Shown: in pieces, positions 56,162 through 61,640 of the stretch
Numbering within the stretch: position 1 is the stretch's first letter
How the letters are laid out: each line of letters begins with the position of its first letter
NCBI RefSeq assembly: GCF_009931435.1
Contig: NZ_CP043414.1
Strand: one strand, 5' to 3'
From: Escherichia coli
GTDB taxonomy: Bacteria; Pseudomonadota; Gammaproteobacteria; Enterobacterales; Enterobacteriaceae
DNA length: 64,000 nucleotides
Program-made: the position numbers and the translations under genes
The notes under the pieces: generated by a model
Database searches by the model: none
Seen by the model: the letters and a program-made list of their open reading frames with translations, nothing else
What the model was told of the DNA's origin: nothing

Positions 56162-57238
56162 ATGAAATTGACGCTGAAAAACCTTAGCATGGCGATCATG
56201 ATGAGTGGAATGATCATGGGAAGCAGTGCAATGGCGGCGGATAGCAACGAAAAAATAGTCATCGCCCATCGCGGTGCCAGTGGATATTTACCGGAGCATA
56301 CGCTGCCAGCAAAAGCGATGGCGTATGCGCAGGGGGCAGATTATCTGGAACAGGATTTGGTGATGACCAAAGACGACCATCTGGTTGTTCTGCATGACCA
56401 TTATCTCGATCGTGTTACTGATGTCGCCGATCGTTTCCCGGACAGGGCGCGTAAAGATGGCCGTTACTACGCGATAGATTTTACGCTGGATGAAATTAAG
56501 TCGCTGAAATTTACCGAAGGTTTCGATATTGAAAACGGTAAAAAAGTGCAGACTTATCCGGGGCGTTTCCCGATGGGTAAGTCTGACTTCCGGGTGCACA
56601 CCTTTGAAGAAGAGATTGAATTTGTTCAGGGGTTAAATCACTCTACCGGGAAAAATATCGGTATCTATCCAGAAATTAAAGCGCCGTGGTTCCATCATCA
56701 GGAAGGGAAGGATATTGCGGCAAAAACGCTGGAAGTGCTGAAGAAATATGGTTACACCGGCAAGGACGACAAAGTTTATTTGCAATGTTTTGATGTTGAT
56801 GAACTGAAGCGCATTAAAAATGAGCTGGAACCCAAAATGGGCATGGACCTCAATCTGGTACAGTTGATTGCCTATACCGACTGGAATGAAACGCAGCAGA
56901 AACAGCCGGACGGAAGCTGGGTTAATTACAGCTATGACTGGATGTTCAAGCCGGGCGCTATGAAACAGGTAGCGGAATATGCTGATGGCATTGGTCCGGA
57001 TTACCATATGGTGATTGAGGAGACATCGCAGCCGGGTAATATCAAGCTTACCGGAATGGTAAAAGATGCACAGCAGAATAAGCTGGTGGTGCATCCTTAT
57101 ACCGTGCGGGTCGACAAGCTGCCGGAATATGCCACCGATGTGAATCAGTTGTATGATGCTCTGTATAACAAAGCGGGTGTAAATGGGCTGTTTACTGATT
57201 TCCCTGATAAGGCAGTAAAATTCCTTAATAAAGAGTAA
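56162..57238 (+). CDS. glpQ: Periplasmic glycerophosphodiester phosphodiesterase GlpQ
   Basis: 358 aa from MKLTLKNLSMAIMMSGMIMGSSAMA (signal peptide); HRGASGYLPEHT catalytic motif. Confidence 0.92.
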   Translation: MKLTLKNLSMAIMMSGMIMGSSAMAADSNEKIVIAHRGASGYLPEHTLPAKAMAYAQGADYLEQDLVMTKDDHLVVLHDHYLDRVTDVADRFPDRARKDGRYYAIDFTLDEIKSLKFTEGFDIENGKKVQTYPGRFPMGKSDFRVHTFEEEIEFVQGLNHSTGKNIGIYPEIKAPWFHHQEGKDIAAKTLEVLKKYGYTGKDDKVYLQCFDVDELKRIKNELEPKMGMDLNLVQLIAYTDWNETQQKQPDGSWVNYSYDWMFKPGAMKQVAEYADGIGPDYHMVIEETSQPGNIKLTGMVKDAQQNKLVVHPYTVRVDKLPEYATDVNQLYDALYNKAGVNGLFTDFPDKAVKFLNKE

Positions 57239-57245
57239 TGCTACT

Positions 57246-57274
57246 GCAGGATGGCGTTTATGCGCCATCCTCTG
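57246..57274 (+). terminator. Hairpin just downstream of glpQ
   Basis: ggatggcg / cgccatcc stem with a 6-nt loop, 8 nt after the glpQ stop; no strong T-run. Confidence 0.45.
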
Positions 57275-57457
57275 CTAAAGCGAAATAATGCTACTACCGG
57301 TTATTCTTTTCATTAACGGGTGCATCCTGTAAAAAGATGCCAACATAATTTTCGTAAAACTCATTCGTTAAAAAAGCTAACACTGTGCATTGTTATTCTT
57401 TAAACAGTATGAATAGGTCTCAATAATAAATTGTAATGCAGTTTATACTGTAAAGTA

Positions 57458-58528
57458 TTATTCGAATTTCGGAAAGGTAAAGAAAATATTAATGTATCTT
57501 ATTAATTTATCATATTGTTCTTGGGTGAATGCTGTTTGCACACCTTCAGGGCAATATTTACCAGTAATAACCAGTTGCCCATTGCTGTGTTGTACCATTA
57601 AACCTTCTTTTTCCTTTGGATCTACAAAATTAGAATTATCAAATGTGAAGATATTTTTTTCCTGTTTTGAGTAAGTAAAGAAATCTCGTGTATAGCTGAA
57701 ACTATCATTTATTAATGGTGCTAACTTTTTGTCGGCGATATCGATAAGCTCACCACTTAATTTATTGATGTATTTAATTTGCTTCAATTTTTTCTGCGCT
57801 TGCACAATTTGCTTGTAGGTGTTTTCAATTTTTTTAGAAGAATTCTTAAATACATCATAGCGTTCCTCGGAGGATGTGTATTTGTACCATTCTGTATTTT
57901 TCTCAGAATGTTGTAGCAGGTCTGTATATTTTTTTTGATCGCTGTAAAGTTGACTTTTAATACTTTCCTCACTGCTGATCTTATAATGTTTATCAGAGTT
58001 GTTTGTTTTTGAAATGTCCTTTTCTGTCAGTGTCTGGTCCGTGTTGTGGGTATTTTCTTTTGCAACATGCTCATTGATGATGTTAATTGCAGTTTCATAT
58101 TCATTTAAATTTATTGTTCTTTGTGAAAGAAACCCTTCTTTGCTTTCGATACTCAAAACACCTTCGTTGTTTTCACCTCTGGTAAAGGTAAGGATATAGG
58201 GTTCATAATCTTCTGCAAATTCATTTTTATACGTTATGACATGCTCGACAAAATGTCTTATTGGTACGAAACCATAACTGTGAACGTCAATTTTTTTGGT
58301 CTTGACACTATCAATTTCATCTGAGGCTTTCGTGAAAAAAGCCAATAAATTAGCTATGTTGTCTGCTGAGGTTGATAACCCGAATCTACTTTGAGATATT
58401 TTTAGAAACTCATTGCAAAAAATCTCAAGTTTCGCGGTTTGTTGTGATTCTTTGTAAATTTCTGCTGTTTGCAATTTATTATTTTGTAAAATATTACAGC
58501 GAGATAAGTGAATAGATGTATTTGGCAT
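57458..58528 (-). CDS. Orphan hypothetical protein of about 356 aa, no family recognised; AT-rich, foreign-looking
   Basis: Long uninterrupted ORF in a very AT-rich block; ATG at 58528 preceded by AAGGA at good spacing (the track start at 58564 is a TTG); Lys/Glu/Ser/Asn-rich, no TM segment, no motif I can place. Confidence 0.6.
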   Translation of the reverse strand: MPNTSIHLSRCNILQNNKLQTAEIYKESQQTAKLEIFCNEFLKISQSRFGLSTSADNIANLLAFFTKASDEIDSVKTKKIDVHSYGFVPIRHFVEHVITYKNEFAEDYEPYILTFTRGENNEGVLSIESKEGFLSQRTINLNEYETAINIINEHVAKENTHNTDQTLTEKDISKTNNSDKHYKISSEESIKSQLYSDQKKYTDLLQHSEKNTEWYKYTSSEERYDVFKNSSKKIENTYKQIVQAQKKLKQIKYINKLSGELIDIADKKLAPLINDSFSYTRDFFTYSKQEKNIFTFDNSNFVDPKEKEGLMVQHSNGQLVITGKYCPEGVQTAFTQEQYDKLIRYINIFFTFPKFE

Positions 58529-58993
58529 AAATGATTCCTTGTAGTGTGAGTTAACAAGATACAATTTAATCTTTGCAGAATATATTCACTATCAAATTTA
58601 GCTCATTTTATTACGAAGACCTTTACGCATGTTAGAAAGTATCATTATTGTTAATAAATACGGTAATAAGTAACAAACAGATATTGATAACTTCCCTGAC
58701 AAGTTATTAGGTATCCCACTTGAAGATTGAGAATGGCTCCAGAGTAGACTGTGTACTGTTCGCCGGAGTGTCATTACTCTCAACAATCGGTTTTGACAGT
58801 GAGTCGGGCGCTTCATACCGGTTTCTACCTGGAGTCATTGTCACTTCCCTAATCTGGATAAATATTTATCGCTAATTCACAAAGTGGACCAAAATCAGGT
58901 GAAAACGAATTATTACGCATGGTAAAGACTACAGGCCAACTAAGTGTGGCGAATCAGACAATCTTACATTTGTCATCAATCTCATGTCTCACA

Positions 58994-59212
58994 TCAAATT
59001 TTTCCACTCACCACGAGTTGTTCCGTACACGTTTGTAGTAAAAACAGTGGACTGCCTTCTACCGGCTTTTCTTTAGCCAACAACGAAATCTGTCGATAGA
59101 AGGTTGGTTCGTGAGGAACGGAACACAATTCACCTGCAATGGTTTTCAGCGTTAACTCTGGTAATAAGGCGATGCCTAATCCCTGTCGAATAAAATTCAT
59201 CGCTGTATCCAT
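58994..59212 (-). pseudogene. yfaH: C-terminal fragment of a LysR-type regulator (yfaH-like remnant)
   Basis: 72 aa ORF resembling only the C-terminal effector-domain end of LysR proteins (GLGIALLPELTLK...); no HTH-encoding region upstream. Confidence 0.5.
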
Positions 59213-59415
59213 CTGATTAAATTCACATTTTATTTGCTGGGCGCACTATTAGTGGTAGTGGCTGGTGGAGTCTATGCGCTGCAAATGAAGGGTAAAAGCG
59301 GTGTCGCGCTAGTAGTGGCAAAAGAAATTCATTAATACGACACGTTTCATTAAGATTTTTCGCAGGTAACCACCTATAGTCATTGTCGTTAATAAAAAAT
59401 GACAGGCGATAGGGT

Positions 59416-60066
59416 ATGGCAGTTTCAGCAAAGCACGATGAATTTAATCACTGGTGGGCAACAGAGGGCGACTGGGTTGAAGAGCCTAACTATCGCCGTA
59501 ATGGTATGAGCGGGGTGCAATGCGTCGAGCGCAACGGCAAAAAGCTGTATGTGAAGCGCATGACGCATCATCTGTTTCATTCCGTACGTTATCCGTTCGG
59601 TCGACCGACGATTGTCCGTGAGGTTGCGGTAATTAAAGAGCTGGAACGGGCTGGTGTCATTGTGCCGAAAATCGTTTTTGGTGAAGCGGTGAAAATTGAG
59701 GGTGAATGGCGCGCGTTGCTGGTGACGGAAGATATGGCGGGGTTCATAAGTATTGCTGACTGGTATGCCCAGCATGCAGTAACACCTTATTCTGACGATG
59801 TTCGGCAAGCCATGTTGAAAGCTGTGGCGATGGCGTTTAAGAAAATGCATAGCGTTAATCGTCAGCATGGCTGTTGTTACGTTCGCCACATCTATGTGAA
59901 AACAGAAGGTATGGTAGAAGCTGGTTTTCTTGATCTGGAGAAAAGTCGTCGCCGCTTACGTCGGCATAAAGCGATTAATCATGATTTCCGCCAGCTGGAA
60001 AAATATCTGGAGCCGATCCCTAAAGCGGACTGGGAGCAGGTTAAAGCGTATTACTACGCCATGTAA
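59416..60066 (+). CDS. inaA: Acid-inducible Kdo/WaaP-family kinase-like protein InaA
   Basis: 216 aa ORF with ATG start; recognised as InaA. Confidence 0.88.
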   Translation: MAVSAKHDEFNHWWATEGDWVEEPNYRRNGMSGVQCVERNGKKLYVKRMTHHLFHSVRYPFGRPTIVREVAVIKELERAGVIVPKIVFGEAVKIEGEWRALLVTEDMAGFISIADWYAQHAVTPYSDDVRQAMLKAVAMAFKKMHSVNRQHGCCYVRHIYVKTEGMVEAGFLDLEKSRRRLRRHKAINHDFRQLEKYLEPIPKADWEQVKAYYYAM

Positions 60067-61528: not shown

Positions 61529-61640
61529 GCCGGATAAGGCATTTTACGCCGCATCCTGTGCCTGATGCGACGCTGGCGCGTCTTATCAGGCCTACAAATT
61601 CGAGCCGTAGGCCGGATAAGGCATTTACGCCGCATCCGGC
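61529..61640. repeat. BIME: cluster of three REP elements in the nrdA-nrdB spacer
   Basis: Three REP-consensus copies in alternating orientation (gccggataaggcattttacgccgcatcc; gcctgatgcgacgctggcgcgtcttatcaggcctac; gtaggccggataaggcatttacgccgcatccggc). Confidence 0.7.

Follow-up and report, generated by a model that had tools for sequence, protein, structure and literature searches.

In a 64,000-nucleotide (nt) stretch of Escherichia coli DNA (contig NZ_CP043414.1; the whole stretch is referred to below as the window), the 10-bp sequence TAATGCTACT occurs twice in close succession at the 3′ end of the glpQ gene. The two copies lie on either side of a real boundary, the left junction of a 1714-bp block of AT-rich accessory DNA, and they are probably unrelated sequences that match by coincidence. 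Copy 1 consists of the glpQ stop codon together with the 7-nt spacer ahead of an ancestral stem-loop at the glpQ 3′ end (hairpin 1). Copy 2 is part of the first 24 nt of the block, an islet containing a single orphan gene restricted to Escherichia. This islet, which shows neither terminal repeats nor a target duplication, would have been joined to the stem-loop at its 3′ foot, where a short gap precedes the end of a convergent LysR gene. No inserted segment is flanked by the repeat, which is not a recognizable scar; the finding is ordinary.

The repeat and the left junction of the AT-rich block

A sequence-only reading of this DNA had reported the repeat at 57236-57245 and 57286-57295, with copy 1 overlapping the glpQ stop codon. 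Our analysis confirmed this and revealed that these are the only two exact copies of TAATGCTACT in the window, both located on the plus strand. The glpQ stop codon TAA (57236-57238) constitutes the first 3 nt of copy 1. The match between the copies is exactly 10 nt long (13 of 15 positions when the next 5 nt are added), and the 10-nt sequences flanking them agree at only 3 and 4 of 10 positions. Copy 1, placed directly before hairpin 1, is a polymorphic part of the core DNA and is found with or without the block. Copy 2, separated from the left end of the block by 14 nt, directly precedes a weak stem-loop (hairpin 2) and occurs only where the block is present.

The block (57272-58985) extends from the 3′ foot of hairpin 1 to the end of the LysR (yfaH-like) gene. 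Its G+C content is low (values of 0.30-0.34, about 31% overall, versus approximately 50% in the flanks). We defined the limits of the block by comparing the window with 5426 complete E. coli genomes, in 1045 of which a 2.1-kb probe was covered over at least 80% of its length; in the others the match ends at 57271. A 96-nt junction probe (57225-57320) was fully covered in 1051 genomes, and only its 57225-57271 portion, comprising copy 1 and hairpin 1, was matched in at least 3193. The block alone was identified in 1052 genomes (about 19%), where it is single-copy, exclusively chromosomal and has the same ends. The carriers include O157:H7, and K-12 lacks the block.

The homology of block-less genomes to the window stops at 57271 and restarts at 58982-58986. 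The empty site of the near-isogenic strain 13081 reads GCGCCATCCT followed immediately by GTCTCACATCAAATTTTTCC, and at the same site the window reads GCGCCATCCT, then the block, which begins with CTGCTAAAGCGAAATAATGCTACT and ends with CATCAATCTCAT, and then GTCTCACATCAAATTTTTCC. The ambiguity of the junction is limited to 1 nt (T). Copy 1 ends 26 nt to the left of this junction and copy 2 begins 14 nt to the right of it. At the opposite end of the block, CATCAATCTCAT is followed by GTCTCAC, without any copy of the repeat; within the block, the nearest copy of the 10-mer with 1 mismatch lies at 58638, on the opposite strand. Comparison of the block ends with the empty site, together with a repeat scan, revealed no target-site duplication, and the scan detected no terminal inverted repeats linking the two ends. 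No transposase or integrase is encoded at the block, whose only open reading frame (ORF) has no match in Pfam, NCBIfam or PADLOC.

The sequence-only reading had proposed that the repeat may mark the left junction of a foreign block, and the junction does fall within the interval it flagged, at 57271/57272, between hairpin 1 and copy 2. It had further suggested that the two copies are the scar of an insertion or duplication around the hairpin, in which case one copy and the sequence between the copies should be missing from empty sites. This prediction was borne out only for the copy itself. The outcome named beforehand as refuting, both copies unchanged in genomes lacking the orphan gene, was not observed, as such genomes retain copy 1 alone; they also retain the hairpin, however, and the part they are missing is 57272-58985. 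Of the 40 nt separating the two copies, only 14 (57272-57285) are absent from empty sites.

The stem-loop between the two copies

The repeats do bracket a hairpin, as the earlier reading had it. Hairpin 1 (57246-57275) is a conserved stem-loop at the 3′ end of glpQ, with stem arms at 57248-57256 and 57263-57271 (AGGATGGCG and CGCCATCCT, respectively). The stem may be extended by a T.G pair to a TTAT loop, and outer GC/GC nucleotides can pair over a 2-nt bulge. Folding of a 71-nt segment gave -23.1 kcal/mol (z = -3.4). The designation of this structure as a terminator can be upheld only in part: the stem-loop is strong and conserved, but no canonical U-tract is present (neither strand has at least 5 T within the 8 nt after the stem), and a simple terminator scan of 57000-59500 yielded no sites, hairpin 1 included. 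In block-less genomes hairpin 1 overlaps the 3′ end of the convergent LysR gene, and in strain e1-39 its loop holds the LysR stop codon; by position, therefore, the hairpin serves two convergent genes. A T4/T5 run just downstream of the hairpin shifts the LysR reading frame in other alleles.

Hairpin 1 is present in all five structural configurations of the locus (described below), at the same distance from the glpQ stop codon. These include the B2 haplotype and the divergent E69 haplotype, both of which are without the block and without the LysR gene. All 10 base pairs are kept across 6 haplotypes, and two of them show compensatory double changes (A-U to C-G and G-C to A-U) between the K-12-type and the B2/E69-type sequences. 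The 96-nt probe that includes the hairpin matched a median of one place per genome and never more than two (4244 genomes), and a search of 56900-59500 against Rfam gave no match at E ≤ 1. Genome contigs were also scanned for the hairpin with the degenerate pattern GGATGGCNNTNATGNGCNATCC. This yielded 69 loci, nearly all of which are unrelated chance matches; the only useful one was that of the divergent E. coli E69 (L030). Hairpin 1 is not a dispersed element of the repetitive extragenic palindromic (REP) type or one resembling a miniature inverted-repeat transposable element (MITE). Since it occurs in every empty-site genome and in all configurations, in one place per genome and with its pairs kept, it is ancestral core DNA rather than an inserted element, and the idea of an insertion or duplication scar around it does not hold.

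These results also bear on a smaller-scale explanation, according to which a structured element of 40 nt (the hairpin plus 14 nt) was inserted into TAATGCTACT and duplicated it upon insertion. In its favour, the stem-loop is bracketed by direct repeats of equal length. We nevertheless consider it extremely improbable, because the hairpin occupies the same place after the glpQ stop codon in every haplotype, including E69 and those without copy 2, is single-copy in each genome and belongs to no Rfam family, and because 14 of the 40 nt are part of the 1.7-kb block. Moreover, no genome was found in which glpQ is followed by TAATGCTACT-ACCGG and the hairpin is missing.

Alleles of the two copies

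We surveyed the alleles of both copies in a sample of 22 block-bearing sequences. Copy 1 reads TAATGCTACT in seven of them (the clade-I-like haplotype, to which the window belongs), TAATGCTGCTACT in five (O157-type) and TAATGCTATT in the remaining ten, and copy 2 reads TAATGCTACT in 20 and TAATGTTACT in two. In block-less genomes copy 1 is represented by TAATGCTACT, TAATGTTACT (K-12), TAAATTAACT (B2) or TAAATTCAGT (E69). The exact 10/10 match is thus restricted to the clade-I-like haplotype (7/22). It was found in none of the 15 E. coli-type block-bearing sequences, which have instead a 9/10 or 8/10 match or a 3-nt insertion in copy 1. The two copies drift independently.

In one E. coli haplotype (loci L087 and L092), the copy-2 region, equivalent to positions 57276-57295 of the window, reads TAAAGAGAAATAATGTTACT. 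Both derived changes match the copy-1 region of K-12 (TAAAGAGTAATGTTACT), yet copy 1 of these loci themselves is TAATGCTATT. The changes may be due either to coincidence or to a short conversion tract.

Hairpin 2 (57296-57321), which follows copy 2, has the structure ACCGGTTA-N10-TAACGGGT. It contains one mismatch in the window and is perfect in O157-type E. coli. Its sequence differs between haplotypes, and its fold is no better than that of shuffled sequences (z = -0.9 and -0.4).

Each copy of the repeat directly abuts a stem-loop, and copy 2 is unchanged in 20 of the 22 sequences, which might point to a functional motif: TAATGCTACT (AGTAGCATTA on the minus strand) would serve the 3′ ends of the glpQ transcript, the orphan transcript, or both as a signal for binding or processing. 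This is very improbable in view of the free polymorphism of copy 1 (five alleles, including the one with the 3-nt insertion), the lack of enrichment of the motif in the window and of any corresponding Rfam family, the weakness and variability of hairpin 2, and the near-neutral evolution of the orphan gene, which is often broken.

Statistical evaluation of the repeat

The expected number of occurrences of this particular 10-mer is 0.02. This value is not the relevant test, since the word was chosen after being seen. The window contains 11 exact direct repeats of at least 10 bp at a spacing of ≤50 bp and 20 at ≤100 bp, versus approximately 2.4 and 5, respectively, in shuffled sequences. A second exact 10-bp direct repeat, GTTATTCTTT, is located in the non-coding left part of the block (57300-57309 and 57392-57401, 92 bp apart), illustrating the abundance of repeats of this type in the AT-rich DNA here.

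When the 122 bp to the left of the block junction were aligned with the 129 bp to the right of it, the best local alignment was the bare 10-mer, a score reached in 88 of 2000 shuffles (4.4%). Flanks of these lengths share a 10-mer at 3.3% of all window positions. With ≤1 mismatch allowed, the motif occurs at 5 sites in the window versus 3 expected, i.e. it is not enriched, and the remaining weak direct or inverted matches to the 10-mer region within the block are at chance level. As a repeat, it is unremarkable and exceeds chance only marginally; its proximity to a true junction is mildly unusual.

A tandem duplication of approximately 50 bp was also considered as the source of the two copies. 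It was rejected, as the similarity does not span the repeat unit and the best alignment across the junction consists of the 10-mer alone.

Several observations weigh against mere coincidence. When only tight flanks are taken into account (40 nt on the left and 30 nt on the right), a 10-mer is shared at no more than 0.28% of window positions. The coincidence is thus not trivial if the closeness of the copies is taken at face value, though this closeness was chosen after the fact. If a 3-nt gap is allowed, the similarity in the window grows to TAAAG-G...TAATGCTACT (16 of 17 positions), and the gapped match between the copy-2 region of L087 and L092 and the K-12 allele of copy 1 is complete (17/17). 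Finally, no donor that would place copy 2 within the foreign DNA was found for the block.

The closeness and the gapped similarity would fit a templated junction patch. During the illegitimate joining of AT-rich DNA to the foot of the hairpin, the glpQ stop region, located 50 nt upstream, would have served as the template for a short stretch, with a slip of 3 nt; the hairpin may have promoted this, through template switching or filler synthesis. The junction has one copy to its left (within 36 nt) and one to its right (within 24 nt), flanks so tight that the figure of 0.28% applies, the gapped alignment gives TAAAG[A/C]G(+AAA)TAATGCTACT, and copy 1 is TAATGCTACT in the empty-site haplotypes L003 and L007, so the template probably existed at the time. 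We regard such a patch as possible, but rather unlikely. The gap-friendly scoring that extends the alignment (TAAAG, a 3-nt gap and AGTAATGCTACTGCAGG, matched with TAAAGCGAAATAATGCTACTACCGG) gives a score that 11% of shuffles reach. Copy 2 is not at the junction itself, and of the 14 nt in between only TAAAG-G aligns. Furthermore, no donor sequence was found to mark where the foreign DNA begins, and we know of no common documentation of templated filler as an outcome of illegitimate recombination in enterobacteria, which also counts against this explanation.

If the junction were patched in this way, 57272-57295 would not be foreign DNA and the repeat would be a genuine junction scar. It would then provide a small mechanistic clue to the joining of islets without mobility genes beside convergent-gene hairpins in enterobacterial chromosomes. 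The complete scenario, in which 57272-57295 derives from the glpQ stop region and the repeat is the true scar of a hairpin-associated template-switch insertion, recording the entry of an integrase-less islet, seems unlikely.

The left end of the block may alternatively be a relic of its donor context: in the donor, a gene (possibly glpQ-like) would have faced the orphan gene in convergent orientation, and its stop codon, spacer and terminator (hairpin 2) would survive here; the two copies would in this case be homologous. The layout of this end mirrors that of copy 1: copy 2 starts with TAA, is preceded by AAAGCGAAA and is directly followed by a stem-loop, and ACTACCGG, found after copy 2, recurs in the glpQ spacer of the B2 allele. 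On the other hand, just 14 nt of the block are located upstream of copy 2, too short a stretch to reveal coding homology, nothing else in the B2 intergenic segment resembles the block, and hairpin 2 folds no better than shuffles. The hybrid allele TAATGCTACTACCGGATGG was found in no complete E. coli genome (best full-length match, 90.7%). We consider this origin improbable.

Coincidence is argued for by the lack of scar geometry and of extended similarity, the high base rate of repeats of this kind, the independent drift of the two copies and the absence of enrichment of the motif. The match between the two 10-mers would, on this explanation, have no cause of its own.

Origin of the block and its orphan gene

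Presence or absence at one fixed site, a deviant G+C content and homologues only in Escherichia characterize the block as a strain-specific chromosomal islet. It has no match in phage sequences, and its only match in a plasmid collection is a mislabelled, chromosome-sized record of 4.9 Mb. Between the window and E. coli, the block has a synonymous divergence (dS) of 0.07-0.09, approximately one third of that of glpT, glpQ and inaA (0.20-0.29), which suggests that the block may have been shared between lineages after their split; the AT-rich composition may itself lower the substitution rate and hence this value. Its low G+C content and dS, and the fact that the divergent E69 lineage does not carry it, lead us to infer that the block was inserted, as opposed to being ancestral and lost in other genomes, and that it then spread between lineages by homologous recombination in the flanking DNA. 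The alternative, repeated loss of an ancestral block, seems less likely.

The intergenic DNA of B2 was examined as a possible derivative of the block or homologue of its left end. This candidate was rejected, as only the hairpin aligns.

The orphan gene (57458-58528, minus strand) is predicted from the ORF list to encode a protein of 356 amino acids, starting from an ATG at 58528; an upstream TTG at 58564 is also listed. The protein has no match in Pfam, PADLOC or NCBIfam, and its sole PHROG match has an E value of 0.05. A word search of 5.8 billion proteins identified homologues in Escherichia only (at least 86% identity), and an exhaustive search of 1.84 billion representatives returned only fragments at ≥70% identity and no more distant relative. 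The AlphaFold2 model of the protein (mean predicted local distance difference test score of 46) is unreliable and too poor for a fold search. The ratio of nonsynonymous to synonymous divergence (dN/dS) between the window and E. coli copies of the gene is 0.5-0.8, compared with 0.02-0.09 for glpT, glpQ and inaA; the orphan gene evolves almost neutrally. Many of its copies in E. coli carry a frameshift according to their annotation or are interrupted by the insertion sequence (IS) IS1.

Independent IS insertions were noted across this region in several E. coli lineages, including IS1 in the orphan gene (loci L091 and L095) and IS3 in glpQ (L007). In GDSC2227PM, the LysR gene and all but a left portion of the block have been lost: an IS1 is situated there between the leftmost 387 bp of the block and a truncated MFS transporter gene.

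Organization of the locus

The gene order of the locus is glpA (leftward), glpT and glpQ (rightward), the AT-rich block with one minus-strand ORF, a LysR remnant (leftward), an MFS-transporter remnant, inaA (rightward), and yfaE and nrdB (leftward). It corresponds to the glpQ-yfaH-inaA region of K-12 with one extra block. The glpQ coding sequence (56162-57238, plus strand), encoding glycerophosphodiester phosphodiesterase, was assigned from the ORF list and the annotation of matching E. coli records, and the exact GlpQ protein of the window is also found on contigs of identical gene order. The right-hand neighbour of the block is the convergent LysR-family remnant, a yfaH-like pseudogene (58994-59212, minus strand), assigned from the ORF list and the annotation of K-12-like and R32_14_1F records. 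The flanking genes of the window share approximately 94.7% identity with those of K-12. No differences from GCA_009899265.1 were found across the glpQ-block region, and the 162 nt surrounding the glpQ stop codon are identical in TW10509, which we take to be a cryptic clade I Escherichia. A literature search on the glpQ-yfaH and glpQ-inaA orphan region retrieved no matching publication.

Five structural configurations of the glpQ-inaA interval (57246-59415 in the window) were distinguished, based on loci L001, L003, L004, L005 and L030: (i) full LysR and MFS genes (e.g. e1-39), (ii) LysR and MFS remnants, reduced by one internal deletion (e.g. K-12-like strains), (iii) neither gene (e.g. B2 strain UPEC 26-1 and the divergent E69), (iv) the block with full LysR and MFS genes (e.g. 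strain 110 and LH85-a), and (v) the block with the remnants (e.g. the window and R32_14_1F). Full-length LysR and MFS genes are therefore found in both e1-39 and strain 110. One LysR/MFS deletion joint was seen both with and without the block, which indicates that the block and LysR/MFS polymorphisms have been recombined.

Two further features of the region were noted. A 100-bp segment of glpQ (57039-57138) shares only 80-81% identity with every E. coli copy sampled, while the 100-bp stretches beside it are 92-100% identical, except in one comparison (86%). The residues encoded by this segment (PEYATDV) resemble those of the divergent E69 lineage, and it looks like a small recombination import. 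At 61529-61640, where nrdB has its upstream end (its ORF call extends to 61647), there are direct repeats of 16 and 14 bp spaced by 81-82 bp (GCCGGATAAGGCATTT and TTTACGCCGCATCC). Their sequence resembles that of REP-type extragenic palindromes, and over this interval the alignments of the E. coli comparison loci are broken and shifted in coordinates.

Comparison with known systems

Target-site duplications generated by ISs and transposons may have a length similar to that of the repeat (9-12 bp in the IS4 family). As in these systems, a short direct repeat of about the right length is located near the edge of acquired DNA, and one copy is absent from the empty site. The two copies do not, however, abut the ends of an insert, and the DNA between them is mostly ancestral core DNA (the hairpin). 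Unlike a transposon, the 1.7-kb block lacks a transposase and terminal inverted repeats, and its right end is not marked by a copy of the repeat. There is also a resemblance to the attL/attR core repeats of integrase islands, in that a direct repeat is present at the border of foreign DNA; in those islands the repeats flank the whole element, which encodes an integrase, whereas here both exact copies are at the left end and no integrase is present.

Short direct repeats flanking a palindrome are substrates of slipped-strand deletion. The 10-bp repeats bracket a stable stem-loop, an arrangement that in principle favours the loss of the hairpin and one copy. In contrast to such systems, no deletion product of this kind was seen, and 1051 of the 1052 block-bearing genomes retain the full junction.

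The useful outcome of this analysis is a precise map of the junction, with the islet (57272-58985) abutting the 3′ foot of the conserved glpQ stem-loop, and the 10-bp repeat should not serve as evidence for the route by which the islet arrived. The closest parallel is with the strain-specific islets (“O-islands” and “K-islands”) that separate E. coli O157:H7 from K-12, of which, to our knowledge, a 10-bp repeat is not a described feature. Like these, the block is a small AT-rich segment with an orphan gene and no mobility genes, present at one chromosomal site between conserved genes. There is no essential difference between them, and the block is such an islet.

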